Source of the DNA: an uncultured delta proteobacterium
GTDB taxonomy: Bacteria > Myxococcota_A > UBA9160 > SMWR01
Assembly (NCBI GenBank): GCA_963832165.1
Contig: CAWHTE010000007.1
Coordinates: 896,001-960,000 of the forward strand
Length of the DNA: 64,000 nt
Direction of reading: 5' to 3'
Part shown: in pieces, positions 26,520 through 41,965 of the stretch
How the letters are laid out: each line of letters starts with the position of its first letter
Position numbering within the stretch: position 1 is the first letter of the stretch
Program-made: the position numbers and the translations under genes
The notes under the pieces: generated by a model
Told to the model about the DNA's origin: nothing
What the model saw: the letters and a program-made list of their open reading frames with translations, nothing else
The model's database searches: none

Positions 26520-28100
26520 ATGAAGCCTTCCGATCGCTCGCTCGAGATTGCCGTGCTCGGGCTCGGGCAGGCCGGCGCGAACATCGCTGCCGAGTTCCAG
26601 CGCCGCGGCTACCGCTCACTCGCGTTCAACACCGCACGGACCGATTTCACGTCGCTGGGCGCGACGCTGCCCGAATCGCAGCGGATCCACATCGGGCTCG
26701 AGGGCTCCAACGGCGCGGGCAGCGACGTCGAGCACGGGCGCGAGTGCATCGCGGCCAACGCCGACCGGATCAAGTCCCTGGTCTCGGAGCACGCTGCGCT
26801 CGCCGACGTCGTCGTGATCGCCGCGGGCCTCGGCGGTGGCGCCGGCTCGTGCGCGGCCGACCTCGTCGAGCTCGTCCGGGAGCTCGATTTCCCGATCCTG
26901 GTGCTCACCGCGCTTCCGCATCATCACGAAAGCGGAATCAACAAGGTGAACGCGCTCTGCGCGATTCGCGATCTCGCGCAGTTGCCCGGATTCGGCTGGG
27001 TGATGATCGACGACGCGAAGCTCGCGCGACTCCATCACGACGTTCCGATCAGCTCGTATTTCGAGACGATCAACCGCGACATCGTCGAGCCGCTCGACAC
27101 GTTCAACCGGCTCAACGACCGCGAGTCGATCGCGCCGATCCGCACCCTCGACGCGGAAGACCTCCGCACGCTGCTGCTCGCGGGTGGCATCCTGAACTAC
27201 CACTCGCGCGTGCTGCCGAAGCTCAGCGTCGATGCGGTGCTCGAGACGGTGCGCGTCTCGCTCGCAGAGAACCCGATCATGCCGAGCGGGTCCGATCTCG
27301 CGAACGCGGCCTACCTCGGGATCGTGATCGAGGCCTCCGAGCGCGCGCTCGCCGAGAGCCCGTTCTCGCTCTTCGAGGAAGTCGCGGAGCAGACCAAGCG
27401 CGAGACCGGTGGCGCGGCGGTGTACCTGGGCCTGTATCGCGCGCTCGGAGTCGACGACGCGTCGGCGACCGTGCGCATCCTCTCGTGCACGCCCGCGCTT
27501 CCGTCTTCGATCGGCGAGATGATGGCCGAGGCGCAGCGCGAGGCCGGCGCGATCCAGCAGAAGGCCACGCGCCACGTAGACGGGCTCGACCTCGGCGGCC
27601 TCGAGCGCCTGCGCCCGACGCCGGTTCCGCACGTCGCGCGCTCGCGCCGCGGCGGCGACGCGAACGCCGCAGCGCCGGCGCCCGTGACCGCGAAGAAGGC
27701 GGCGCGCGTCGCGAATGAGCCGGCTCCATCGGTAGCGGTGACCGAGCCGGCGCCGTCCGTGGCGTCGAATCCGCCGGCCGCGCGCGCGCCGGCCACCCAG
27801 GCCTCGTCGCGCAATGGCGATTCCGGGGCGACGCTGCCGTCGCGCGGGCGCTACGAGCGGCTCGCAAACGCGTTCCGCGAGGCCACCGAGGACGACAAGC
27901 GCTCCAAGATCGGGGGCGAGCTCGTGTCGGCGCTGCAATCGAATGAGGCGCTCGAGCGCTTCTACGCGGTCAACGCGATGTCGCGCGTGAATCCGGGCTA
28001 CTTCAAGGAAGCGCTGCGGAAGGCCGCGCGCGACGCGGACCGCCACGTGTCGGACCTCGCACGTCGAGCACTCGAGAAGCTCACGGTCGGGCGCGACTGA
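26520..28100 (+). CDS. Divergent tubulin/FtsZ-superfamily GTPase with Pro/Ala linker and C-terminal HEAT-like domain
   Basis: RBS AGGAGG; GLGQAGANIA, AFNTA, NGAGSDVEHG, AGLGGGAGS, LDAEDLRTLL; tail LERFYAVNAMSR...LRKAARDADRHVSDLARRALEKL. Confidence 0.85.
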   Translation: MKPSDRSLEIAVLGLGQAGANIAAEFQRRGYRSLAFNTARTDFTSLGATLPESQRIHIGLEGSNGAGSDVEHGRECIAANADRIKSLVSEHAALADVVVIAAGLGGGAGSCAADLVELVRELDFPILVLTALPHHHESGINKVNALCAIRDLAQLPGFGWVMIDDAKLARLHHDVPISSYFETINRDIVEPLDTFNRLNDRESIAPIRTLDAEDLRTLLLAGGILNYHSRVLPKLSVDAVLETVRVSLAENPIMPSGSDLANAAYLGIVIEASERALAESPFSLFEEVAEQTKRETGGAAVYLGLYRALGVDDASATVRILSCTPALPSSIGEMMAEAQREAGAIQQKATRHVDGLDLGGLERLRPTPVPHVARSRRGGDANAAAPAPVTAKKAARVANEPAPSVAVTEPAPSVASNPPAARAPATQASSRNGDSGATLPSRGRYERLANAFREATEDDKRSKIGGELVSALQSNEALERFYAVNAMSRVNPGYFKEALRKAARDADRHVSDLARRALEKLTVGRD

Positions 28101-28105
28101 ACGCG

Positions 28106-28777
28106 TTGAGAGCGCTGATCCACCTGGTTCCGCGCGCGGGCGCGGGCGATCGGTTCGCCTCGCGCATCGCGTCGCTCGTGCCCGAGCTGCGCGAGCGCGC
28201 GGCGGCGCGCGGTCTGGTCGTGAACGCGCTGCATCGGCTCGAGCGCGATGCGTTCGGCAAGCACACGCCGTATCGCGCCGCGCTCGAGCTCACGGGCGCG
28301 CAGCTCGTGCCCGATGAGGTGCTGGCCGTGGTCGGCGATCTGGGCCCGCGCATCGATGACGTCGCGCATCCCGATACGTCGACGCTGCTCATCGGCGCAG
28401 ACGCCGTGTTCGTGGCGCCCGCAGAGCGCTCGCCGGTCCGTTACCAGTACCTGATGCGCCGCAACGCGAGCTTCACGCACGCGGCCTATCTCGAGCGCTA
28501 CCGGACGATCCACTCGCGATTCGGCCTCGTGACGCCGGGCCACCAGGGCTACGTGCAGCTCCACGTCGATCCGGATGCGTCGCGGCGCACGGCCGTGCGC
28601 GCGGGTCTCGGGGTGTGGGGCTGTGACAGCGTGTCCGAGCTGCACCTCGAGTCGCAGGAGAAGTTCCTGCGTGCACTTGCGAAGTCGGGCTTTGGCAAGG
28701 AGCCGATCGAAGACGAGGAGGTCTTCGTCGACCGCGCGAGCTCGTTCGACCTGTGCTCGACGGTCGATTGGGGCTAG
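28106..28777 (+). CDS. EthD domain-containing protein
   Basis: YLMRRNASFTHAAYLERYRTIH, GYVQLHVD, DSVSELH, EDEEVFVDR. Confidence 0.7.
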   Translation: MRALIHLVPRAGAGDRFASRIASLVPELRERAAARGLVVNALHRLERDAFGKHTPYRAALELTGAQLVPDEVLAVVGDLGPRIDDVAHPDTSTLLIGADAVFVAPAERSPVRYQYLMRRNASFTHAAYLERYRTIHSRFGLVTPGHQGYVQLHVDPDASRRTAVRAGLGVWGCDSVSELHLESQEKFLRALAKSGFGKEPIEDEEVFVDRASSFDLCSTVDWG

Positions 28778-30222
28778 GCGCGCGGGCGATTCCGACCGAG
28801 CAGCGCGAGCAGCGCGATTCCAGCCGCGAGCGCGAGCCTTCCCGGCTCCGGCAGCGATGCGATCGCCTCCTCGACGTCCGCGCGCGGGAACGAGAGCCCG
28901 TTGCCCGGGTTCGTCACGAGCGGTCCGCTATCCGCGAGCGCGTTGCGGACCTCGTCGGGCGTGAGGGTCGGATCCGCGTCCAGGAGCAGCGCTGCCTCGG
29001 CCGCCGCGTACGGGCTCGCGGCCGAGGTTCCGCCGAACGAGGTCGTGAGGCCGCCGCCCACCGCGCTCGTCGCCGTGCGGTAGTCGGGAGCGAGGATGTC
29101 GAGCAGCGCGCCGCTGTTGGTATGGCAGACGAACACGTCGGGCGCGGTCGTACTGTCGGTGCATTCGGGAAATAGCGCACAGAGCGGAAGACCCAGGAGC
29201 ACCTCGCCGCACCAGGACACCGAGCCCACGTTCGCGTCGTAGACGCCGCCGACCGAGATCGCCTGTGCGACGCAGGCCGGAAACGAGATGCCCTGGTCGT
29301 GGCTCTCGTTCCCCGAGGCGACGAATACGGCGATGCCGGCCGCGTGCAGTCCGGCGATCGCATTCGCGGTGTTGCTGCCGGTGCACTGCCCCAGTGACGA
29401 GTTCGCGTACTGGCCGCCGTCGCCCAGACTCATGTTGACGACGCGCACGCCCGCTGCGGCGCCTCCGGGGCCGCTCTCGCTGAGCACCCAGTCCAGACCC
29501 GCGGCGATGTCGGAGAAAGTCCCACCGCCCGCGTTGTCGAGCACCTTGACCGCGACGATCTCGGCGCCCGGCGCCACGCCGAGCGGCGCTACGACACCCG
29601 CCGAAGTGATGATGCCCGAGACGCTCGTGCCGTGGCCCTGATCATCTTCGGCGCTGTCGTCCTCGTTCGACCCATCGGGGCAGCATCCCTGGCAGAAGCA
29701 GTGCTGGGCGGCGATGTCGTCGGCCAGGTCCGGGTGGTTGGTATCGATGCCCGTGTCGACCACGGCCACGCGCACGCCCGCCCCGGTATAGCCCTGGGTG
29801 TGAACCGCGGGGGCGCCGATCATGGCCGAGCCCTCGACCAGCCGGGCACGGACGCGCCCATCGAGCGACACCGCGGCGACGCGCGGATTCGCCAGGAGAG
29901 CGTGGATTCCCTGGGCCAGGGCACCGCCCGAGAGGCCCGCGATCGAGCGGTAGCGGCGCGTCACCGAGAACACACCCGCCGGCAGTGCCGACAGCAGGCC
30001 GTCCTGGAGCTCCGCCACGCGCGCGCTGCGGGCCGGACCCAGCGGCGGCAGCGAATCACCCTCCGCGAGCACCACCTCGATCTGCAGCCATTCGCCCGCG
30101 GTCGCCGCGGCGAGTGCGCGCTCGAGTGCGGGGTCGAGTCGAGCTCCGGGCTCGCTCCACCCCGGGTGCGCCAGCGAGAGGACGGCCGCGAACAGCACGA
30201 GCGAGCGGGGCAGGGGGCGCAA
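28774..30222 (-). CDS. Secreted S8 subtilase with propeptide and PEP-CTERM-like tail
   Basis: Triad VVDTGI / GHGTSVSG / GTSAASP, oxyanion ASGNE; C-terminus LPEPGRLALAAGIALLALLGRNRPRA. Start codon uncertain. Confidence 0.88.
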   Translation of the reverse strand: MRPLPRSLVLFAAVLSLAHPGWSEPGARLDPALERALAAATAGEWLQIEVVLAEGDSLPPLGPARSARVAELQDGLLSALPAGVFSVTRRYRSIAGLSGGALAQGIHALLANPRVAAVSLDGRVRARLVEGSAMIGAPAVHTQGYTGAGVRVAVVDTGIDTNHPDLADDIAAQHCFCQGCCPDGSNEDDSAEDDQGHGTSVSGIITSAGVVAPLGVAPGAEIVAVKVLDNAGGGTFSDIAAGLDWVLSESGPGGAAAGVRVVNMSLGDGGQYANSSLGQCTGSNTANAIAGLHAAGIAVFVASGNESHDQGISFPACVAQAISVGGVYDANVGSVSWCGEVLLGLPLCALFPECTDSTTAPDVFVCHTNSGALLDILAPDYRTATSAVGGGLTTSFGGTSAASPYAAAEAALLLDADPTLTPDEVRNALADSGPLVTNPGNGLSFPRADVEEAIASLPEPGRLALAAGIALLALLGRNRPRA

Positions 30223-30425
30223 GCGATCTCCAAGCGAAGCCACAACGACAGCCGAAAAATCCGATGTCTGCGCATCGTCCCATGGCGGGGGTCCGCAGCG
30301 CAACCCGTGCCGGAATAAGGATGGGTCCGAGCGCGCGGTCGGACGGGCACGAGCCCCGCAACATGTCGAGAAAGATTGACTAACCGGTGCTCAAGCTCGG
30401 AACGGGGCATGTCGCTACGGCGCAG

Positions 30426-31415
30426 ATGGCATTCCCTCATTCTCACGCCGTGCGGCGCGCCCTCGGCGCTTGCCTCGTGCTATGGGCCTCGCTCGCGAGC
30501 CCGGCCTGGGCCGCCGGCGCGCCCGCCAACACCGCGATCAACAACACCGCGACGGTGACCTTCACCGATCCGGATGGCCAGCCGCAGACGATCAACTCGA
30601 ACACGGCCACGCTGCGCGTCGACGAGCTGCTCGGCGTCGCGGTCGTGAGCAACGATGCGGGCAACGTCGGCGTTCTGTCTCCGGACGACGACGATGCGCT
30701 CTCGTTCACGATCACGAACCCCGGCAACGGATCGGAGGCGTTCGCGCTCGCTGCGAACGCGGCCCTCGGTGGCGATGAATACGACCCCACCGACGTCCGG
30801 ATCTTCCTCGATGACGGCGACGGCGTGTTCGAGCCCGCGCAGGACACGCTCTATGTGGTCGGCGTGAATGATCCCGTGCTCGCGCCGGACCAGTCGCTCG
30901 TCGTGTTCATCTCGGCAGACACCCCGGCGGGCCACGCCACGGGCGATACCGCTGCGGCCCAGCTCACGGCGACCGCGGTCACGGGCAGCGGGACACCGGG
31001 CACCACGTTCGCGGGGCAGGGCACCGGCGGCGTGGACGCCGTGGTCGGCGCGACCACGGCGACCGCAGATGCGCAGGGCACCTACTCGGTGTCCCAGACG
31101 CTCACGACGCTCTCCAAGAGCCAGACCATCGAGGACCCGTTCGGCGGCACCAGCCCGGTTCCGGGGGCCGTGATCACCTACACGATCACGATGACGCTCG
31201 CGGGCTCCGGCACGATCACGGGCGCGCAGATCGACGACTCGATTCCCAGCAACACGACCTACGTCCCGGGGAGTCTGCGCCTCGATGGCCTGCCGCTCAC
31301 CGATGCCGCGGACGTCGACGCCGGGCAGTTCACCGGCAGCGCGATCGCGGTGAGCCTGGGCGCCGTCACGGCTCCCGGCTCGCACACCGTGGAATTCCAG
31401 GTCCAGATCAACTGA
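30426..31415 (+). CDS. Secreted DUF11-repeat protein, putative pilin A
   Basis: Signal peptide (..SPAWA), then AGAPANTAINNTATVTF..INSNTATLRV; C-terminal DUF11 TLSKS..DPFG..VPGAVITY..IDDSIP..TVEFQVQIN. Confidence 0.75.
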   Translation: MAFPHSHAVRRALGACLVLWASLASPAWAAGAPANTAINNTATVTFTDPDGQPQTINSNTATLRVDELLGVAVVSNDAGNVGVLSPDDDDALSFTITNPGNGSEAFALAANAALGGDEYDPTDVRIFLDDGDGVFEPAQDTLYVVGVNDPVLAPDQSLVVFISADTPAGHATGDTAAAQLTATAVTGSGTPGTTFAGQGTGGVDAVVGATTATADAQGTYSVSQTLTTLSKSQTIEDPFGGTSPVPGAVITYTITMTLAGSGTITGAQIDDSIPSNTTYVPGSLRLDGLPLTDAADVDAGQFTGSAIAVSLGAVTAPGSHTVEFQVQIN

Positions 31416-31429
31416 GGAGGTCCGCGACC

Positions 31430-31933
31430 ATGACGCGTCTTCACTATCGAACTGCGCTCGCCGGATTCACCGCCGCCTGGCTGCTTTTCGCCGTGGCGCC
31501 GCCGGCGGCGGGGGCCGATGGGCTCGAGCTCCGCAACGCCGTCTTCCAGGAGGTCGACGTCAAGGCGGCCGATGGAACCACGAGTCGCGAGCGCGTGCCC
31601 GCAGCGAAGGTCGTGCCGGGCACCGAGGTGATCTACGTGATCACCTATCGCAACGGGGGCGAGCAGCCCGCGACCGACGTCGTGATCACCAACCCGGTCC
31701 CGTCGGAGCTCGCCTACGTGCCCGAGGGCCAGCCCGGCGCGTCCGCGGCTCCCGAGGTCTCCGTGGACGCGGGCAAGCACTGGGGCGCGCTCGCTTCGCT
31801 GCGCGTGCTCGGGGCCGACGGCAAGCCGCGCGCGGCCCAGGGCAGCGATGTCACGCACCTGCGCTGGAAGCTCGGCGCCCCCGTTCGCGCCGGCGAAGAG
31901 GGGTCCGTCAGCTACCGCGCGGTCCTCGAATAA
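31430..31933 (+). CDS. Secreted single-domain DUF11-like protein (putative chaperone/terminator)
   Basis: RBS GAGGAGG; signal peptide; VVPGTEVIYVITYRNGG..ATDVVITNPVP..VTHLRW..SVSYRAVLE. Confidence 0.75.
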   Translation: MTRLHYRTALAGFTAAWLLFAVAPPAAGADGLELRNAVFQEVDVKAADGTTSRERVPAAKVVPGTEVIYVITYRNGGEQPATDVVITNPVPSELAYVPEGQPGASAAPEVSVDAGKHWGALASLRVLGADGKPRAAQGSDVTHLRWKLGAPVRAGEEGSVSYRAVLE

Positions 31934-31996
31934 CACGATTTCCGTGATCTGAAGAAGAACCAGAACCAGTTACACGCTGAACCAGAAGCAGGAGCG

Positions 31997-33104
31997 ATGA
32001 TCCCCATGAGACCCTTCCACTCGAGATTCCTCGCCGTCCTCGCGGGCACGCTGTTCGCAGCCGCCCAGGCGGCCGCCCTCGGCGCCGATACCAATGCAGG
32101 GACGGACATCAGCAACACGGCCACGGTCGACTACGTGGTGGGCACCGTGAACCAGCCCGACGTGAACTCCAACACGGCCACCTTCGAGGTCGACCGGAAG
32201 CGTCCTCCTGACCGTCGCCGAGGTCGGCGGCGCCTACACGGACGTGGCGCCCGGCGATGTCGAGCAGGCGCTCACGTTCACGGTCACCAACGACACCAAC
32301 GGGCCGGTCGACTTCCGGCTCGTCGCCAGCCAGGACGCCACCGGGACCACGGAGGCTCACGGCGGCACGGACGACTTCGATGCGGCCACCCCCGTGGTGA
32401 TCATCGATTCGAACGGCAGCGGCAGCTACGAGGTGGGCGTCGACACGGGATCCTTCCTCGACGAAGTTCCCGAAGGCGCGACGCGCACGGTGTTCATCGT
32501 ATCGACGATCCCGATTCGCCAGCCCAACGGCGACACCGCGGGTCTCACGCTCACGGCGCACGCGGCCCTGGCCGGCGTCGCCGCGACGCTCGGCGCAGAC
32601 CTCGCCGAGAGCGCTAGCGACGATCGGACCGACGGTCATCGACACGGTGCTCGCCGACATCGCGGGCGATACCGACGGAGCGCGCGACGGCGCCCACAGC
32701 GACGACGACGCGTACCGCATCCAGACCGCGACGCTCACGGTGACCAAGACGTCCACCGTGATCAGCGATCCGTTCAACAACCTCGCCAATCCCAAGCGCA
32801 TTCCGGGCGCGGTGGTCGAGTACTGCGTCACGGTGGAGAACGGCGGAGACGCGGATGCCACTCTCCGTGGTGCTCACCGACGTCCTGACCGGCCAGCCGG
32901 TGACCTATCAGGCGAGCAGCCTGTTCACGGTGGACACGGGCGCCGACTGCACGGGTGGCGACGCGGAAGACGACGACGCCGCCGGGGCGGACGAGACGGA
33001 CGACAACGGCGCCTCGGAGAGCTTCCGGGACGGTTTCGGCGACGTTCCAGACCGTGCCGGCCGGTGCCGGCAAGGCGATGCGCTTCCGTGTGACGATCAA
33101 CTAG
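31997..33104 (+). CDS. Secreted DUF11-repeat protein, putative pilin B (about four frameshifts near 32200, 32630, 32863, 33030)
   Basis: Joined frames: signal peptide, TNAGTDISNTATVDY..VNSNTATFEVD, LTFTVTND, TLTVTKTSTVISDPFNNLANPKRIPGAVVEY, VVLTDVL, final KAMRFRVTIN-stop at 33104. Paralogous to 30426-31415. Confidence 0.7.
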
Positions 33105-33225
33105 GCGTCGCGAATCGTGCTCCGAGGCAGCGGGTGCGCCGGATTCCGGCGCACCCGCTGCACGCAGCGCGAGCGGCCGCATGTACTGCGAGCGCGTGAG
33201 GTCGGTTTGGCGCCGCTATCTCGCG

Positions 33226-36200
33226 ATGGCGCGCCAGACGACCGCGCGGACGGCGCTCGGCGTGCTTCTGGTGGCCGCTTTCGGCGCCCAGGCGGCCACC
33301 GTCTCGAACACCGCGCGGCTCTCCTACCTCGATCCGACCGGCGGACCGGTCGATCAGCCCTCGAACACGGTCACGTTCCAGACTGCCCCGGGCCTCTCTC
33401 CCGGACTAGTGACACTTCTGCGTTTCGCACCCGGCGGGGGTTTGGCACAGCCGACCCAGGCGGACGGAGCGTCATGCGGAAACGGTGCGGGCGGATTCTG
33501 CGCCGTCGCCCTCGCTCTGGGCGAATGGCGGCGCGCTCGATCTCTCCGCACCGGTGCCGCTGCTCGACGCCACGTCGTATCACGCGGGCGAGCCCGTATT
33601 CCTCACACTCACCGACTCGAATCGCAACGCGGATCCACTGCTGCGCGAAACGATCGACGTGCGCATCACGACGAGCGGCGGCGACCAGGAAGATCTGCGC
33701 CTGCAGGAGACTGGACCCGACACGGGCATGTTCGCGGGTGGAATCCAGAGCGCGCGCATTCCGCCACCTCTCGCGGCCTTCGATTGCCGGCTCTCTCTTC
33801 CCGAAAACACCATGCTCTCCGCGGACTACGTCGATGCGATGGACGCGTCCGACACCAGCGAGGATCAGGCGCTCGTCGACCCGTTCGGGTTCGCGTTCGA
33901 TTCGGCGAGCGGGACCCCGATCGATGGCGCGCAGATCACGTTGATCGACGTCGACACCGGATTGCCAGCGACCGTATTCGGCGACGACGGCACGAGCGCC
34001 TTTCCCGCGAGCGTCACGACGGGCGGCAGCGCCACGGACAGCGGAGGCGCGCTCTACACCTTCCCGCCAGGTGGCTTTCGCTTCCCGGTCGTCCCGACTG
34101 GCAACTATCGCTTCGAGATCACGCCGCCGCCGACCCACTCGGCGCCTTCGACCGTTCCGCCGAGCGTGCTCGCCGACGTACGGAGTCCGAGTGGCGACCC
34201 GTATGCGATCGTCACGGGCTCGTTCGGAGATGTCTTCGTGGTGATGCCGGGCCCGACGCTGCGCATCGACGTGCCACTCGATCCGCTCGGCGCCGGTGGA
34301 CTCTCGCTCGAGAAGCTCGCGTCGCGCGAAGAGGTCTGGGCGGGTGACTTCGTGCAGTACCAGCTGCGGCTGCGCAACGCGAGCGCGGCGCTCGGTACCG
34401 GTGTGCAGCTCACCGACGTGCTGCCGTTCGGGTTCCGCTACCAGTCGAGCTCGCTGCGCTACGGCGGGCTGCGGCGGCCGGACCTGCCGCCCCCGCTCGA
34501 AGCGGGCGACGGGCGCACGCTGACGATCCCGGCGGGCGACCTTCGCACCGGGCGCGACGCTGCTCGTCACCTACGTGGCCGAGGTCACGGCGGGCGCGCC
34601 GCCCGGCGACGCGGTCAACAGCGCGATCGGCCGCGCGGACGGCGGCGTCACCACGAACCAGGCGAATGCGTCGGTGCGCGTGAAGGAGCCGTTCTTCGGC
34701 AGCTGCGCGGTGCTGGTCGGCCGCGTCGTGGAGGGCGAGTGCACCACGCCACAGGAAGAGCTCGGCGGCGTCGGAAACGTCCGCCTGCTGCTCGACGACG
34801 GCACCTACACCAGCACCGACCCGAACGGCCAGTTCCACTTCGAGAAGGTCTGCGACGGAACGCACGTGGTGCAGCTCGATCTCGAGAGCCTGCCGCCCGA
34901 CAGCGAGGTGATTCCGTGCATCCAGAACACGCGCTTCGCGGGCCGCTCGTTCTCGCAGTTCGTCGACGTGCAGGGCGGCACGCTCTGGCGCACCGACTTC
35001 TACGTGCGGCGAAAGCCGAACGCATCGGGCGCTCCCGCTGCTGAGACCACACCGGCGCCGAAGCCGGCGCCCCCGGCCCCGGACGCGCTCGCGGCGCGCG
35101 CGCCGCGATCCCCGACGACGTGATCGCGGCGGGCGGAAAGATCGACTGGCTCCAGGAGGCGATGCGCGCGGCCGGCCCGGGATGGCTGTTCCCGCGCGAG
35201 AACCACAATCCGCGCGCGCCCACGCTGCGCGTCGCGATCCGACACGATCCGGCGCATCACGTCGAGCTCTCGAACGGCGGCACGCCCGTCGACCCGCTCA
35301 CGTTCGACGGCACCCAGATGAGCGCCGACGGCCGCATCGCGGTGAGCGTGTGGCGCGGCATTCCGCTCGTCGAGGGCGACAACGAGCTCGTCGCGCGCGA
35401 TCGTGGACAAGGCCGGCAACACGGTCATGAAGCTCTCGCGCGTGATCCACTTCGCGAACGCACCCGCGCGCGCCGAGCTCGTGCCCGAGCAGTCCGTGCT
35501 CGTCGCCGACGGAATCGCCAAGCCGGTGATCGCCGTGCGCCTGCTCGATCGCGACGGAAGGCCCGTACGCGCCGGTATCACCGGGTCCGTTCACGATCGG
35601 ACCGCCCTACGTGCCGAAGAATGCAATCGACCAGCAGCAGCGGCGCCAGCTCGCGGGTCTGGATCGCTTCCAGCCCACGTATCGCGTCGAGGGCGACGAT
35701 GGCATCGCCTACATCGAGCTTCAGCCCACCACCGAGAGTGGCCAGGTGGTGCTCGACTTCGCGTTCCAATCCGATCGCGAGCTCGAGCACAACGTGCGGC
35801 ACGAGCAGCTGCGCACCTGGCTCGAAGCCACCCAGCGCGACTGGGTGATGGTCGGCTTCGCCGAGGGATCGCTCGGTTACGAGACGCTGTCCGGGAACAT
35901 GGAGGCGCTCGACGAGACCGGACACGAGGACGACGACGAGGTCACGACGGACGGCCAGATGAGCTTCTACACGAAGGGGCGAGTGATCGGGAAGTGGCTC
36001 TTGACCGTCGCCTACGAGTCGGATCGCCACGAGCAGATGCCGGTCCGCGACGACGAGACGCTCGCCGCAGGTGATCGACCCCGACGAGTTCTACACGATC
36101 TACGGCGACGGCAGCGAGCAGCGCTACGGCGCGCCGAGCCAGAAGAAGCTCTACGTCAAGCTCGAGCGGCCGCAGTTCTACGCGCTGTTCGGCGACTACG

Positions 36201-38503
36201 AAACCGGCCTCACGCAGACCGAGCTCGCGCGCTACAGCCGCTCGCTCACGGGCTTCAAGTCGGAGTACGGCGGCTCCGTTTTCCAGTACAACGCGTTCGC
36301 GTCGGATACGGCGCAGCGCTACGTGCGCGACGAGATCCAGGGCGACGGCACGTCGGGGCTCTACCGCCTGTCCGGCCGGCACATCGTGATCAACAGCGAG
36401 AAGATCGCGCTCGAGACGCGCGACCGGCTCCAGAGCCACGAGATCCTCGAGAGCCGCGTCCTGCTGCGTCACATCGACTACGACATCGACTACACCAACG
36501 GCACCCTGTTCTTCCGCGAGCCGATCTTCTCGCGCGACACGGCCTTGAATCCGATCTTCATCGTGGCCGACTACGAAGTCGAGGACGGCGGCGAGGACGA
36601 GCTCAACGCGGGCGGGCGCGCATCGACCCGGCTGCTCGACGGCCGGCTCGAGGCGGGCGTGTCGTTGATCCGCGACGCCGAGGCGTCGAGCGAGACCGAC
36701 CTCGGCGGCGTCGATCTGAAGGTGAAGCTCCTTCCCAACACCCAGCTGCGCCTCGAAGCGGCCGGCAGCAAGGGCGAGCTGGCCGGGGATGACCTCGAGG
36801 GGGGCGCCTACCTCGCCGAGATCGAGCATTTCGGCGAGCGCTTCGACTCCGTGGTGTACGCGCGGCGTCAGTCTGACGAGTTCGGGGTCGGCCAGCAGTT
36901 CAGCGCCGAGTCCGGCCAGGAGAAGCAGGGCCTGCTCGGCCGCGTGCCGCTCGGCGAGAAGACCGCGATCACGGGCGAGGCCTATCGCCAGGAGAATCGG
37001 ACCAGCGAGGTGGAGCGCCTGGCCGGCGTGATGCGTCTCGAGCGCAGCTTCGAGAAGGGCAAGGTGTTCGGCGGCGCACAGTACGCGCGCGACGAAGACT
37101 CGCAGGGCGACGAGTTCGAGTCGCAGCAGATCGTACTCGGCGCGAGCCGCAAGTTCCTCGCCGACAAGCTCGAGCTGCTCGGTCAGGGCGACGTGTCGAT
37201 CGGCGGCAAGGACGACAGCATCGACTTCCCGAGCCGTTACCTCGCGCAGGCCGGCTACGACCTGACCAAGTCCGTGAAGCTGATCGTCGCGGAGGAGGTC
37301 ACGAGCGGCTCCTCGTTCGACACCCAGACCACGCGCGCGGGTGCGATCGTGAATCCGTGGAAGGGCGCGAAGCTGAACAGCACCGTCAACCAGGACCTCG
37401 GCGAGTACGGTCCGCGCACGTTCGGATTGCTGGGCCTCACGCAGTCCGTGCTGCTCGGCGAGCGCTGGGGCGTGGACGTCGGCGTCGACCAGAGCACGAC
37501 CTTCGCGGGCTCGCGCCGCGCGGATCAACCTCCGCAGATCAACCCGGGCTATCCGATCGCTGCGGGATCGGGGCACGTGGCGCGCACCGCGACCGGCACC
37601 CCGGGTGTGTTTGGCCTGTCCACCGAGGACTTCATGGCCGTGTCGGCCGGCGCCACGTACCGCGCGGACCTCTGGTCTTTGAACACGCGCGGCGAGCTGC
37701 GCGATGGCGAGAGCGACGACCGCTGGGGCGTGGTGGCGAACTTCCTGCGCGAGGCTCGCGCGGGCGTCGCGTTCGCGAGCTCCGGGCGCTTCTTCGAGGC
37801 CGAGCGCGCGGGGGGTACCGAGGGACTGTTCGGTAGCGTCGACCTCTCATGGGCCTATCGCCCGCTCGGCAGCCGCTGGTCGCTGCTCGACCGGCTCGAA
37901 TTCAGCCTCGATCAGCTCGACGGCGGCACGGGCGTGCCGGGCTCCGGTTTGTTCGGCGCCAACAGCCTCACGACGACCGGCGACGCCGTCTCGCGTGCGG
38001 TGGTCAACAACTTCAACCTGAACCGCGTCTCGCGCGCGTGGACCGCGAAGGACCGCAAGGGCAATCTCTTCGACCTGAACCAGCGCAACCAGTGGTCGTT
38101 CTACTACGGCTCGAAATACTCGTTCGACGAGTATGACGGCGTCTCGTACACGGGCTACACGGATCTGATCGGTGCGGAGTGGCGCTTCGATCTCACGACC
38201 TGGCTCGACATCGGCGCGCAGACCTCGATGCTGCACTCGTGGAACGCCGAGAACTACCAGTTCTCGGCCGGTCCGTCGGTGGGCTTCTCGCCGATCGCGA
38301 ACAGCTGGATCAGCATCGGCTACAACGTGATCGGATTCCGTGATCCCGACTTCGACGCGGCGCGCTACACCGCGCAGGGCGTGACCTTGAAGCTGCGAAT
38401 CAAGTTCGACCAGCTGACGCGTCTTCCGGGTCACGACAAGGACGATCCGCGCGCGGTCAGCCCGTTCGCGTGGCCGGGCCGTGCCGAGGGCGAGCCGCGA
38501 TGA
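33226..38503 (+). CDS. Large (~1,760 aa) outer-membrane protein: N-terminal NTA segment, Ig/DUF11/SdrD-B-like domains, C-terminal beta-barrel (about six frameshifts)
   Basis: Pieces in ORFs 33181, 33485, 34575, 35120, 35403, 35611 and 36071 follow each other without gaps. Signal peptide ..AQA/ATVSNTARLSY; complete DUF11 LEKLAS..TDVLP..AVNSA; many amphipathic strands ending GYNVIGFRD..GVTLKLRIKF. Confidence 0.7.
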
Positions 38504-39999
38504 GGGTATGGAAGGCGATCGCACTGCTCGCGCTGCTGGCGACGCTGGCCCCCGAGGTCGCACGCGCCTACGGCGTGAACCAGTGTGCCGGCGATCGCTT
38601 CGGGTCGAACCTCGGCTGCACTGCCAACGACGTCCAGATCACGAACATGCAGGCGCTGAGCGCGCCGCCGTCGTGTGTGGGCGGCGGGACGATCTCGCTC
38701 GATCTCCTGCTCACGGTCAACTTCGGCAGCGCGAGCCGCTGGGACGTCGGCATCTTCCTCTCGAACGATGGAAAGAATCCGCAGCTCACGGTGGCCAACG
38801 GTGGATCGAACAGCTGCTCGGTGGCGATCCTGCCGACGACGAGCCCATTCCTGAATCTCGACTCGAACGGCGGCACGGATACCTGCGGCGACGGCAACAG
38901 CTCGATCGGGGGTGGAACGGGCAGCGGCCAGTTCGTCATGACCAACGTCACCGTGAAGTGTCAGGCGCTCAGCAGTAGTGGTCAGCTCTGGGTGCCATTC
39001 GTCGTGAGCTGGGACAACCAGGCCAGTCCGTCGGGCCTCACGTGCCGGACGGTCGCCGATCCGGTGCCGAACACGAAGTCGAAGTGCAACGCGCCCGTGA
39101 TCGGGCTGACGCCGCAGGTGATCGTGTTGCCCACGATCACGAAGACCGACGGAAAGACCCAGATCACGCCGGGCGAACCCAATACGTATACGATCGCGAT
39201 CACGAACAACACCGGCATCACCCTCTCCGCGGGCAACGGCAACGCGGCGCTGTTCAAGGACCCGGCCGTCACCAATCTCGCGGTGAGCAGCGTCACCTGC
39301 GCCGTGACCACGGGCACGGCCACGTGTCCCGCCGCCGGCAGCGTGACGGTGGCGGCGATGCAGGGCGCCGGGATCACGATCCCGTCGATGGCGGATGGCA
39401 GCGTCGTGACCTTCACCGTGAATGCACAGCTCAATGGGAACCCCACCGGCACCCTCACCAACGTCGCGACCGTGACGTCGAACGGGCAGACTGCGAGCGC
39501 GAGCGACGCGGATACGATCGTCTACCCGAGCCTCGTCAACGTGAAGAGCTCGCAGGCGGTGAGCGATCCATACAACGGCACCACCAACCCCAAGCGCATT
39601 CCCGGCGGTGCCGTGCGCTACGACGTCGCGGTCAGCAACACCGGGCCCGGCACCGTCAACACGGATACGCTCTTCGTCTACGATGCGGTTCCCGCCAGCA
39701 CCGATCTCTACGTCACCGACATCGGAGGGGCGGGGTCGGGACCGGTCGCGTTCAGCAATGGCTCCCCCACGAGCGCGCTCACCTATACGTTCACCTCGCT
39801 CGCGAGCACCACCGACGATCTCAGCTTTTCGAACAACGGCGGCGCCACGTACAACTACACCCCGGTCCCGAACGGGAACGGGGTGGACCCGACCGTCACG
39901 CACCTGCGCATCAACCCGAAGGGCACGTTCGCGGGCGACCCCGTGGCGGGCGCTCCCAGTCCGATCTGCACGATGAGTTTCCGCGTTCGCATCGAGTAA
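38500..39999 (+). CDS. Secreted Cys-rich DUF11 protein, putative tip adhesin
   Basis: ATGA overlap with the barrel gene; signal peptide; Cys-rich N-domain; complete DUF11 (TITKTD..FKDP..TLTNVATV); C-terminal VKSSQAVSDPYNGTTNPKRIPG..YDAVP..MSFRVRIE. Confidence 0.72.
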   Translation: MRVWKAIALLALLATLAPEVARAYGVNQCAGDRFGSNLGCTANDVQITNMQALSAPPSCVGGGTISLDLLLTVNFGSASRWDVGIFLSNDGKNPQLTVANGGSNSCSVAILPTTSPFLNLDSNGGTDTCGDGNSSIGGGTGSGQFVMTNVTVKCQALSSSGQLWVPFVVSWDNQASPSGLTCRTVADPVPNTKSKCNAPVIGLTPQVIVLPTITKTDGKTQITPGEPNTYTIAITNNTGITLSAGNGNAALFKDPAVTNLAVSSVTCAVTTGTATCPAAGSVTVAAMQGAGITIPSMADGSVVTFTVNAQLNGNPTGTLTNVATVTSNGQTASASDADTIVYPSLVNVKSSQAVSDPYNGTTNPKRIPGGAVRYDVAVSNTGPGTVNTDTLFVYDAVPASTDLYVTDIGGAGSGPVAFSNGSPTSALTYTFTSLASTTDDLSFSNNGGATYNYTPVPNGNGVDPTVTHLRINPKGTFAGDPVAGAPSPICTMSFRVRIE

Positions 40000-40008
40000 G
40001 ATGCGGGC

Positions 40009-40776
40009 GTGGAACTCGGGTTGGCGGGCACTTCGGCGGCGGTGATCGGCGCCGGGCAGGGGATCGGTCGCGCGACCTCGCTCCTGCTCGCGCGTGCGGG
40101 CGCGCGCGTGGCGCTCGTCGACGAGGTCGAGGAGCGGGCGCGCGCGGTGGCGCGCGAGGTGAAGGAGTGCGGCGTCGACGCGCTCGTGATCGCCGCCGAC
40201 GTCACCGACGCGAAAGCGGCCGAGGCGGCGATCGAGCGCGCCCACGCAGAGCTCGGAGGGCTCGCGAGCGTGATCAACATCGTGGGCGCTGCGAGCTGGG
40301 CGCCGCTGCTCGAGCTCGACGACGACACCTGGCATCGCGACTTCCGCGTGAACCTCGAGCACCACCTCCACGTGGCGCGCGCCGCCGCCGCGCGCTGGCG
40401 CGGCACCGCCGGCGCGGGCAGCCTCGTCGCGGTGGCGAGCGTTTCGGGGGTGTTCGCAGCGCCGCGGCACGGCGCCTACGGCGCGGCCAAGGCGGGTCTG
40501 CTCTCGCTCGTGCGGACGATGGCGGAGGAGTGGTGGCCGAGCGTGCGCGTGAACGCAGTGGTGCCGGGCATGGTGCGCACGCCGCGGATCGAGGGGATGT
40601 GGGCCCGCGGTGAGATCGCGCGCCCCACCGACGACATGCTGGATCGGATGGCGGAGCCCGAGGACATCGCGGGTGCCGCGGTATTCCTGTGCTCGGCTCT
40701 CGCGCGCCGCATCACGGGCCAGGCGATCGTGGTCGACGGCGGCACGAGCACGCGCTTCCCCTATCCGATGTCCTGA
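40009..40776 (+). CDS. Short-chain dehydrogenase/reductase
   Basis: GAGQGIG, YGAAKAG, VRVNAVVPG. Confidence 0.9.
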   Translation: MELGLAGTSAAVIGAGQGIGRATSLLLARAGARVALVDEVEERARAVAREVKECGVDALVIAADVTDAKAAEAAIERAHAELGGLASVINIVGAASWAPLLELDDDTWHRDFRVNLEHHLHVARAAAARWRGTAGAGSLVAVASVSGVFAAPRHGAYGAAKAGLLSLVRTMAEEWWPSVRVNAVVPGMVRTPRIEGMWARGEIARPTDDMLDRMAEPEDIAGAAVFLCSALARRITGQAIVVDGGTSTRFPYPMS

Positions 40777-40792
40777 ACGCCTCGGAGGAGAT

Positions 40793-41965
40793 GTGTTCGA
40801 CCCGTTCGCACCGATGCCTGCCGGCGAGCGCTATGCAGCACTCGCAGAGCTGCGCGGTCGGACGCCGCTCGTGCGCCTCGCAGCTGGCCCGTGGCTCGCC
40901 ACCGACATGGCGTCCGTGCTCGCGGGTCTGAAGGCGGTCGACCACTTCGCGGGCAGCTTCGGGGCCACGGGCGCGGGTCCCGAGGACGATCAGGTGATGG
41001 CCGCCATTCCGGAGCCGCGCCACGGCAAGATCCGCAAGGTGTTCAACAGCGCGCTTGCCTATCACCACGCTTCGCAGATGGAGCCGTTCGCACGCGAGCT
41101 CGCGACGCAGCGGCTCGACGCGGCCTGTGCCGCGAGCCGGCGCGACGGCGAGGTCGAGGTGGTAGAGCACTGGCTCGCGCCCGTCCCCTCGGCGGTAATC
41201 GCGCGCGTGCTCGGCGTACCGGACGCGGACCACGCGCGCTTCGCGCGCTGGTCCGACGAGCTGCTCGACCGCCAGGGCCAGAGCGACGTCGAGCACACGG
41301 GGATGGCCGGCGCCCATCCCGAGTTCGCCGCGTACGTGGACGGGCTGATCGCGGAGCGTCTCTCGGCGGCGACGCCGCCCGACGACGTGATCTCGCGCCT
41401 GCTCTTCACGGAGATCGAGGGGGAGCGCCTGTCGGCGCGCATGGTGCGCACGCAGACGATGTTCCTGATCGTCGCCGGGAACGAGACCACGCGGAACCTG
41501 ATGGGCAACTGCGTGTATCGGATCGCGTGTGATCCCGCGCTGCAGGAATCGCTGCGCTCCGATCCGGCGCTCGTGCCCGCGGTGATCGAGGAGACGCTGC
41601 GCCTCGACGCGCCCGTGCAGCTGCTCGGACGCAGTTGCACGAAGGCACTCGAGCTCGATGGTGTGCCCGTCGATGCGGGCGAGCGCGTGCTGTTCCATCT
41701 CGCCTCGGCGAACCGCGACGAGGCCTGTTTCGAGGAGCCCGACGTATTCCGGCTCGCGCGACGCAACGCGCGCGATCACGTCGCGTTCGGCGCGGGCGCA
41801 CACGTGTGCCCGGGCGCGTTTCTCGCACGCATGGAGACGCGCGTCGTGCTCGAGACACTGCTAGCGCGCACCGAGAAGATCGCGCTCGCGCCGGGCTACG
41901 TGTGGGACCCGAACCCGGTGTTCTGGGCGCTCGGTCCGCGCACGCTGAAGGTCACACTGTCCTGA
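40793..41965 (+). CDS. Cytochrome P450
   Basis: RBS GGAGGA; IVAGNETT, EETLR, ASANRDE, FGAGAHVCPG. Confidence 0.9.
   Translation: MFDPFAPMPAGERYAALAELRGRTPLVRLAAGPWLATDMASVLAGLKAVDHFAGSFGATGAGPEDDQVMAAIPEPRHGKIRKVFNSALAYHHASQMEPFARELATQRLDAACAASRRDGEVEVVEHWLAPVPSAVIARVLGVPDADHARFARWSDELLDRQGQSDVEHTGMAGAHPEFAAYVDGLIAERLSAATPPDDVISRLLFTEIEGERLSARMVRTQTMFLIVAGNETTRNLMGNCVYRIACDPALQESLRSDPALVPAVIEETLRLDAPVQLLGRSCTKALELDGVPVDAGERVLFHLASANRDEACFEEPDVFRLARRNARDHVAFGAGAHVCPGAFLARMETRVVLETLLARTEKIALAPGYVWDPNPVFWALGPRTLKVTLS

Follow-up and report, generated by a model that had tools for sequence, protein, structure and literature searches.

A candidate surface fibre of diderm bacteria based on a CnaA-type isopeptide domain predicted to be divided between neighbouring subunits

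Covalently joined pili are a hallmark of Gram-positive bacteria, in which their formation requires sortase, and to our knowledge the pili of diderm bacteria are thought to be held together non-covalently. Whether the subunits of a diderm fibre could lock to one another by a bond of their own making is the question raised by a stretch of 64,000 nucleotides from an uncultured delta proteobacterium (GTDB lineage Bacteria; Myxococcota_A; UBA9160; SMWR01), corresponding to positions 896,001 to 960,000 of the forward strand of contig CAWHTE010000007.1 (GenBank assembly GCA_963832165.1) and referred to below, in its entirety, as the window. The window has a G+C content of about 70% and belongs to an assembly of 11 contigs and 5.5 Mb that is 89% complete. 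Between 30.4 and 40.0 kb it contains an operon of five head-to-tail genes on the + strand, here designated A-B-C-D-E, in whose products the residues of a Lys-Asp-Asn triad are distributed over different chains. On the evidence assembled below, we consider it probable that this operon specifies a diderm surface fibre made from one CnaA-type isopeptide domain that is divided between neighbouring subunits.

In the arrangement that we propose, the acceptor would comprise strands 1 to 7 of the domain, with Lys and Asp, and the donor would be a hairpin of strands 8 and 9, with Asn, situated at the mature N-terminus of the next protein. Docking of the hairpin would complete the fold and unite Asn, Lys and Asp, after which a Lys-Asn isopeptide could form without sortase. 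Protein E, with an additional head domain and an acceptor but no donor, would form the distal tip; C and A, each with donor, middle domain and acceptor, would serve as adaptor and shaft; D, with a donor only and a large outer-membrane barrel, would act as the base and perhaps also as the pore for export; and B, which is acceptor-like and lacks the catalytic Asp, may hold hairpins reversibly in the periplasm. The covalent bond and its independence of an enzyme are predictions, as are the docking of one A subunit on another in trans, the sequence in which the subunits follow one another, the function of B and the way in which D is placed in the membrane. Completion of the split triad by a donor from another chain is supported by a modelled complex, and the division of the triad itself is directly observed.

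Motifs and architecture of the divided DUF11 domain

The DUF11 family (PF01345, TIGR01451) has lately been renamed CLIPPER, and its crystal structure 9IFR is described as containing an intramolecular isopeptide between Lys715 and Asn806, with Asp748 nearby (PMC12617251). According to the same source, the bonded residues of CnaA-type folds lie on the first and penultimate strands, in opposing sheets. CLIPPER has been described solely as a domain with an intramolecular bond. In the window, the C-termini of A, C and E consist of a DUF11/CLIPPER domain that ends after strand 7 and retains the first-strand Lys and the core Asp, and the absent hairpin of strands 8 and 9, with its Asn, is found just past the signal peptide in A, C and D. 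The Pfam DUF11 match in A (20.7 bits, against a cut-off of 24.6) covers profile positions 11-83 of 114 and stops two residues short of the end of the 342-residue open reading frame, and the C-terminal DUF11 match in an intact ortholog of C likewise stops at position 83 of 114; the complete DUF11 domain of a D ortholog spans positions 3-113. TIGR01451 recognizes the C-terminal domain of A with 39.8 bits, the cut-off being 24, and B, which matches DUF11 only, scores 29.7 bits against the Pfam profile. The one-chain layout of nine strands with Lys, Asp and Asn is found in the complete domains of D and E and is lacking in the acceptors of A, C and E.

The initial annotation of the locus had described a Lys-Asp-Asn triad split between subunits within 30513-33104, and this observation is confirmed: a six-frame search located every motif quoted, that is, the Lys and Asp motifs of the acceptors and the NTA motifs with the donor Asn (Table 1). 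Some particulars had to be amended. The interval is correct for A and C; it does not take in the third acceptor (VNVKS/VYDAVP), which belongs to E, or the two complete DUF11 domains, which are in E and D. Both motifs of the C acceptor are present, in different reading frames owing to a frameshift, and the donor element carries the Asn as described and is a hairpin of two strands, 8 and 9, not a single strand. The statement that complete DUF11 domains hold all three residues in one chain applies to D and E, and in E that triad is invariant in 43 of 43 sequences. Gene B, inside the same interval, encodes a further acceptor-type domain without a hairpin, which had not been flagged.

The nature of the N-terminal element was explored using a reference alignment built from 29 canonical repeats that stand in tandem in six Firmicute adhesins, retrieved with A as the query. 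After the strand that corresponds to the end of A, these repeats continue with I-x-N-T-A-T-V, then a loop and one last strand. Profile-profile comparison with hhalign placed the A acceptor on columns 15-110 of the 150 repeat columns (probability 99.4%, E 5e-22), at which point A ends, and assigned residues 34-60 of the same protein to columns 114-141 (probability 63.7%, P 6.7e-5), a column placement which argues that the N-terminus of A is the absent strand 8-9 hairpin of its own domain type. In the alignment to the canonical repeats, Asn40 corresponds to the Asn of the NTATV strand and Asp271 to the Asp of the ISDxLP motif. A hidden Markov model built from the repeats of one adhesin gave weak matches to the hairpins (E 2.3 and 0.097), the profile-profile comparison being clearer. 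A hairpin profile searched against the six-frame translation of the 5.5 Mb genome at E ≤ 0.01 returned three matches only, the N-termini of A, C and D, and the same profile detected no donor hairpin in E. The hairpins at these three N-termini belong to a single family, and one profile recognizes the acceptors of both C and E. Elsewhere in the genome, at about 293270-296410 on the - strand of contig C5, a gene with at least six tandem DUF11-type domains also matches the acceptor profile and presumably encodes a classical fibrillar adhesin.

Between hairpin and acceptor, residues 66-223 of A form a separate Ig (immunoglobulin) or macroglobulin-like middle domain in the AlphaFold2 (AF2) model. 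This domain has invariant Asn/Gly/Asp motifs (TNxGNGxE and DxxGDG) that might bind calcium. When compared with the Protein Data Bank (PDB), the A-family profile gave weak matches only, to a histidine kinase (E 0.004) and to AbpX (E 0.012). The middle-domain profile over residues 69-119 (about 30630-30782) likewise weakly matches AbpX, an archaeal donor-strand fibre protein (9sj2 and 9rhp; E 0.012-0.015). An apparent double middle domain at one other locus (L080) proved to be one domain divided into two profile matches.

Conservation of the triad and models of the completed domain

Conservation in homologs, the lack of which the initial annotation had listed as evidence against its proposal, is high in all three classes of acceptor. 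In the A family (238 sequences of 290-375 amino acids, which overlap in relatedness and are not independent), Lys231 is kept in 233 and Asp271 in 234, Asn40 in 217 and Asn59 in 214, and all four residues occur jointly in 194. Asn, Lys and Asp are each present in 61 of 61 members of the C family drawn from the loci, and in the alignment of the E family (n = 43) the acceptor residues Lys349 and Asp395 as well as Lys215, Asp254 and Asn321 of the complete domain are all invariant. Where the A-type residues are lost they can be lost together: in P0056, P0057 and P0058 the positions of Asn40, Lys231 and Asp271 are occupied by Ala, Leu and His or Asn, with Asn59 retained. Among donors counted in species-representative genomes, the strand-8 Asn is found in 68 of 73 for A, 69 of 69 for C and 59 of 60 for D (196 of 202 in total), and the strand-9 Asn in only 17 of the 69 C donors. 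Homology, joint loss and this contrast between the two strands point to Asn40 and not Asn59 as the reactive residue, so that Asn59 is probably not the bond partner.

Protein B provides an informative comparison. In the B family (n = 66) the position of the Asp is occupied by Asn in 65 sequences, the sole Asp being that of locus L013, and the position of the Lys is occupied by Lys in 27. Since an acceptor-type domain exists that lacks the triad, the fold as such does not demand it. The distribution of residues suggests that the triad is retained where a hairpin partner would be expected to lock and disarmed in B, which would thus be a natural control.

The acceptor fold was compared directly with 9IFR. 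Aligned by VIA-align, residues 222-329 of the A model (AF2 monomer; mean predicted local distance difference test score, pLDDT, 92.2; predicted template modelling score, pTM, 0.71) superpose on residues 18-109 of the 9IFR chain with a Z-score of 8.5 and a root-mean-square deviation of 2.5 over 91 residues at 22% identity; a Z-score near 8 is middling when taken alone, and the profile alignment supports the assignment to the CnaA-type fold. A PDB sequence search with A, the A acceptor or the canonical adhesin P0122 did not retrieve 9IFR, and a Foldseek search with the whole A model yielded low-scoring multi-domain matches only (integrins, CfaB or Saf fusions; template modelling, TM, score < 0.3).

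To what extent a hairpin fits a foreign acceptor was modelled for E residues 206-499 together with A residues 31-224, that is, the hairpin and the middle domain. The three runs gave interface scores derived from predicted aligned errors (ipSAE) of 0.79, 0.78 and 0.79, with at least 99% agreement in contacts and a partner pLDDT of at least 91, and the controls reached 0.00 as the best of three. Among solved complexes, 116 of 157 attain the mark used for ipSAE, as do 2 of 215 mismatched pairs, a calibration that holds only roughly here because alignments of our own were used for the E and A model. In the modelled complex, A 42-45 runs antiparallel to E 391-394, adjoining Asp395, and A 56-59 runs parallel to E 347-349, at Lys349; this is the register expected if the hairpin replaces strands 8 and 9. 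From that register, Asn40 and Asp395 would face the same side of their sheet. In the model the strand with the Asn adjoins the one with the Asp, and the last strand adjoins the one with the Lys, an arrangement that matches the description of CnaA-type domains in PMC12617251. The initial expectation that the reactive residues should not be far apart is thus borne out at the level of strands. Completion of the fold by the N-terminus of another subunit is seen in this E plus A-hairpin docking model only, in which two strands are given.

The operon, its barrel protein and its neighbourhood

The coordinates of the operon and of its motifs are collected in Table 1. All five products start with Sec-type signal peptides, as judged by eye, and inspection of the C-terminal ends of A (VQIN), B (AVLE) and E (RVRIE) revealed no LPXTG sorting signal.

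Table 1. Features of the five-gene operon, in coordinates of the window
Feature	Position	Strand	Description
Gene A	30426-31415	+	329 aa, intact; candidate major subunit
A signal peptide	30426-30512		
A donor hairpin	~30525-30620		
A Asn40	30543-30545	+	Hairpin first strand (strand 8); candidate bond-forming Asn
A Asn59	30600-30602	+	Hairpin second strand (strand 9); lateral neighbour of acceptor Lys in model
A middle Ig-like domain	30621-31094		
A acceptor domain	31095-31412		
A acceptor Lys motif TLSKS	31107-31121	+	Lys231 codon 31116-31118, first-strand Lys
A acceptor Asp motif IDDSIP	31230-31247	+	Asp271 codon 31236-31238, candidate catalytic Asp
Gene B	31430-31933	+	167 aa, intact; secreted single acceptor-type domain, without hairpin or reactive pair
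B Arg35	31532-31534	+	Lys position
B Asn88	31691-31693	+	Asp position
Gene C	31997-33104	+	Second donor-middle-acceptor subunit; four frameshifts (frames 2>0>1>2>0)
C donor hairpin	32096-32194	+	Asn codon 32114-32116
C motif TVTKT	32737-32751	+	Lys codon 32746-32748
C motif LTDVL	32873-32887	+	Asp codon 32879-32881
Gene D	33181-38503	+	~1770 aa; six frameshifts 33.4-36.07 kb; likely start 33226
D donor hairpin	33298-33381		
D strand-8 Asn codon	33307-33309	+	
D Ig-like domains			Including one complete DUF11, ~34290-34650
D C-terminal all-beta region	36071-38503		
Gene E	38500-39999	+	499 aa, intact; start overlaps D stop by 4 nt; candidate tip
E domains			N-terminal Cys-rich domain; complete DUF11 (Lys215, Asp254, Asn321); acceptor residues 340-499; no hairpin
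E motif VNVKS	39535-39549	+	Lys349 codon 39544-39546
E motif VYDAVP	39676-39693	+	Asp395 codon 39682-39684
NTA donor motifs	A 30543, 30600; C 32114, 32171; D 33307, 33364	+	Six-frame search

The gene set is widespread and strictly ordered. With A as the query, 831 proteins were obtained at E ≤ 1e-3 among the candidates scored, and 357 cluster representatives at E ≤ 1e-30; the A family occurs in Alpha-, Beta-, Gamma- and Campylobacterota-type genomes. Species-representative genomes, searched with a 15-sequence alignment, yielded 73 loci, belonging to Sphingomonadales, Moraxellaceae, Steroidobacteraceae, Microbulbifer, a Betaproteobacterium and a metagenome-assembled genome of Campylobacteraceae; Microbulbifer aestuariivivens, Sphingomonas glacialis and Aquisediminimonas sediminicola are cultured carriers. 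Taking the 69 loci with an A-type acceptor as the base, B follows A in all 67 loci in which the sequence continues for 600 nt or more, a second middle domain (C) is present downstream in all 63 that extend for at least 2 kb, and a barrel gene lies downstream of A in all 54 with at least 9 kb, the order A-B-C-D being kept in 54 of the 54 loci long enough for judgement.

The last 810 residues of D, modelled by AF2 from a 30-sequence alignment (pLDDT 75.6, pTM 0.68), form about 30 long antiparallel strands. Foldseek related the model to large outer-membrane barrels (Deinococcus SlpA, LptD, TonB-dependent receptors, FimD and PapC) at TM scores of 0.15-0.36, the ushers FimD and PapC reaching only 0.21-0.23. 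No Pfam family matched this 810-residue piece, and the ESM Atlas returned unnamed clusters, the one at rank 15 having Porin_4 in 33% of its members. In the D ortholog of Microbulbifer aestuariivivens (L027:12717-19058), residues 699-802 form an OmpA-family peptidoglycan-binding domain between the Ig-like domains and the barrel; this belongs to a variable region of about 500 residues that D of the window lacks.

Known assembly machinery was sought in the same genome. The genome, 89% complete, contains no match to the PapD-type chaperone (PF00345) and none to the usher (PF00577). There is no sortase in the locus, the sole sortase-family match being on another contig (C4:217361-217723, - strand, 111 bits). 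The proteins scanned gave no match to the TasA or camelysin Pfam families, the nearest finding being the weak middle-domain match to AbpX (E 0.012 over 51 residues), and scans of the operon and its flanking genes detected no peptidase of family S26, no search having been aimed at a SipW-type peptidase.

The surroundings of the operon appear to be incidental. Divergent from it, on the - strand at 28774-30303, lies an S8 subtilase gene (Peptidase_S8, E 3e-41) whose product has, by eye, a PEP-CTERM-like tail (LPEPGRLALAAGIALLALLGRNRPRA). A gene at 26520-28100 (+) encodes a 526-aa protein that begins with a tubulin/FtsZ GTPase domain (E 2e-14) and ends in a long tail rich in Ala and Pro, and is followed by an EthD-domain gene at 28106-28777. 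The subtilase, which had been considered as a processing protease, and the EthD and FtsZ-like genes were rejected as parts of the system, as they stand beside the operon in none of the other loci searched. Directly downstream of E, at 40009-41965, are genes for a short-chain dehydrogenase and a cytochrome P450, each found near the operon in one other locus only and probably unrelated to it.

Alternative readings and comparison with known systems

Several observations weigh against the proposed fibre, or against parts of it. Since the chain of E offers Lys and Asp but lacks a hairpin, and that of D bears a hairpin beside its complete domain, some complementation must occur in trans, and the claim of the initial annotation that donor docking completes the triad in trans is supported by the orphan hairpin of D and orphan acceptor of E and by the E plus A-hairpin model; for A and C, self-docking is a possible alternative. 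In this second reading the domain would simply be circularly permuted: the hairpin of A or C would dock on the acceptor of the same chain, with the middle domain alongside and an intramolecular bond, and pairing in trans would be confined to the orphans, the D hairpin joining the acceptor of E or B, which would give an anchored adhesin and no polymer. The AF2 monomer of A models its hairpin strands confidently (pLDDT > 90, with the overall pTM given above), so that docking of the own hairpin is possible; whole-model matches to mu-homology domains take in the N-terminus (model range 22-329); and inserted domains are described as tolerated by CnaA folds (PMC12617251). The distance between donor and acceptor, which falls in the bin of 150-174 residues in 232 of 241 proteins, is constant as a permuted domain would have it, and it fits docking on the same chain and on a neighbour equally well. 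The complex model has limits of its own: its success may reflect the likeness of the split pieces to complete domains rather than real binding, the docking geometry consists of strand-pair contacts and not of interatomic Lys-Asn-Asp distances, and among the pairs of lowest error Lys349 of E contacts Ser58 and Asn59 of A, not Asn40. Moreover, given the OmpA-type domain of the Microbulbifer ortholog, the N-terminal part of D is possibly periplasmic and would tie the base of the fibre there, in which case the D hairpin, too, may be periplasmic. Structure predictors, on the other hand, often fold a donor strand back into its own groove. Closed monomers of this sort are reported in the Tafi paper (PMC11821415). 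If A and C locked on themselves, they would lack a free end and any link to D or E, although no genes of the operon are better conserved (63/63 and 67/67); the A hairpin docks on the E acceptor in the complex model; and, as noted above, the donors are of one family and the C and E acceptors of one profile. Two outliers in spacing argue in the same direction, P0193 with 252 and P0142 with 1162 residues from donor to acceptor. The latter, a metagenomic protein of 1335 aa, consists of a hairpin, a middle domain, about 680 residues of other domains, an E-type acceptor, a second hairpin, a middle domain and an acceptor, leaving the N-terminal hairpin and the C-terminal acceptor free, and from its layout it could possibly be the fused joint of two subunits. 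Because self-locking would deprive A and C of a free end, the A hairpin docks on E and the donors belong to one family, we prefer the chain model for A and C and regard permutation as improbable.

A fibre assembled by donor hairpins in trans might also dispense with the covalent lock, Lys, Asp and Asn being kept for packing or hydrogen bonding. Of the 21 A relatives (out of 238) without Asn40, 18 have Ser or Thr in its place and keep Lys and Asp, and the three others have Ala and lack both; in four relatives both Asn residues are absent. Since some members lack Asn40 or both Asn residues, the isopeptide bond would therefore not be universal in the A family. Some DUF11 domains are described as lacking the bond (PMC12617251), and the oligomers of BsaA are reported to be stable in sodium dodecyl sulphate without the bond until heated (bioRxiv 10.1101/2024.11.04.621531). 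Packing alone sits poorly, however, with the near-invariance of Lys and Asp across the three acceptor classes, with a clade that loses all three residues jointly and with the systematic replacement in B of just the catalytic Asp (65/66), and in alignment the residues coincide with the triad proven for this family of domains; we therefore think a fibre held without the bond quite unlikely. A different objection concerns the copy in the window, in which about ten frameshifts, four in C and six in D, fall within less than 4 kb (32.2-36.07 kb), while A, B, the barrel part of D and E, and the other long genes of the window, are open. If the shifts are real, this genome would be unable to build the fibre, whatever the family does elsewhere, and we give this a serious but minority chance. 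The cluster could reflect a local assembly or polishing fault or recent decay. Against a dead copy, every piece of C and D is 37-60% identical to intact orthologs, much as the unbroken barrel part is (about 50%); nine of the ten shifts share the +1 direction, the exception, located in D near 35.03-35.12 kb, leading from frame 3 into frame 2; and an assembly of 11 contigs with a contig longer than 1 Mb suggests long reads with residual indel errors. The ortholog of C is intact at L013:3938-5113, and orthologs in that locus and in 73 others are open. In the only sequencing run found (6% of sampled words), none of seven short contigs crosses a frameshift site. The frameshifts in C and D are thus possibly assembly errors.

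Beyond the divided fibre domain, which remains the preferred reading, the system could constitute a distinct pathway of diderm pilus assembly, with natural, sortase-free Tag/Catcher subunits, B as a chaperone in the form of a disarmed catcher and D as both export barrel and covalent anchor. Here B, through its change of Asp to Asn, would chaperone the reactive donor hairpin in the periplasm and so prevent self-locking. We advance this wider scheme tentatively and hold it to be rather doubtful as a whole. Were it true, the operon would also contain several pairs of donor and acceptor made by nature, which might prove orthogonal and serve as tools for protein ligation, with B as a ready-made non-reactive control for them. 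A fibre that locks itself through completion of a divided isopeptide domain would bring a new principle of assembly to the surfaces of diderms and would explain a common, unannotated gene set. The existence of cultured carriers makes the system testable. Full-text searches of the literature brought up no published description of a split DUF11/CLIPPER pilus, and preprint supplements may list related families.

Among known proteins, CLIPPER domains are the closest in fold, belonging to the same family by the TIGR01451, hhalign and VIA-align comparisons given above and having Lys, Asp and Asn at the same positions; the nine strands are contiguous there, whereas in the present operon strands 8 and 9 stand at the mature N-termini of A, C and D. 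BsaA of Clostridium perfringens is the closest in mechanism. It is described as assembling by exchange and lock, with Asn35 on the donor strand and Lys74 and Glu56 in the acceptor, as tested by mutagenesis (bioRxiv 10.1101/2024.11.04.621531). Both systems have an Asn on an N-terminal donor and a Lys and an acidic catalyst in the neighbour's acceptor, a spontaneous intermolecular bond being proposed for each, and the conserved combination of donor Asn, acceptor Lys and acidic catalyst, here Asp, is found in the operon as it is in BsaA. As far as that account goes, BsaA differs in being a TasA jelly roll rather than a CnaA-type Ig domain, in using Glu in place of Asp and a single donated strand in place of a hairpin, and in having a monoderm host with SipW; it has neither an outer-membrane barrel nor a counterpart of B. 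Its triad was tested by mutagenesis, and that of the operon is read from sequence and models. The threads of Sulfolobus acidocaldarius likewise combine strand complementation with an intermolecular isopeptide formed without a known enzyme, Asn57 of Saci_0406 being bonded to the alpha-amine of the N-terminal Asp24 in subunit n+2 (PMC9715654). They are archaeal, belong to the TasA superfamily and, in the description given there, have no Lys-Asp pair.

In its proposed plan the system resembles chaperone-usher pili, with a tip that is acceptor only, a shaft with both elements, a last subunit tied to an outer-membrane barrel and, as modelled for E with the A hairpin, the fold of a subunit that would be completed by its neighbour's N-terminus, all encoded in a single operon. 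It differs from them in that the genome has neither a PapD-type chaperone nor an usher, barrel and donor-bearing base are parts of one protein, each donor contributes two strands, a covalent lock is likely and B would cap donors, not acceptor grooves. From the sortase-assembled pili of Gram-positive bacteria it is set apart by the lack of LPXTG signals on A, B and E and of a sortase in the locus. SpyTag and SnoopTag pairs, finally, are man-made splits of isopeptide domains from Gram-positive adhesins, in which a strand bears one reactive residue and the remainder bears the other together with the catalyst. In the present operon the split would be natural and based on a hairpin, with three donors and three reactive acceptors encoded side by side.

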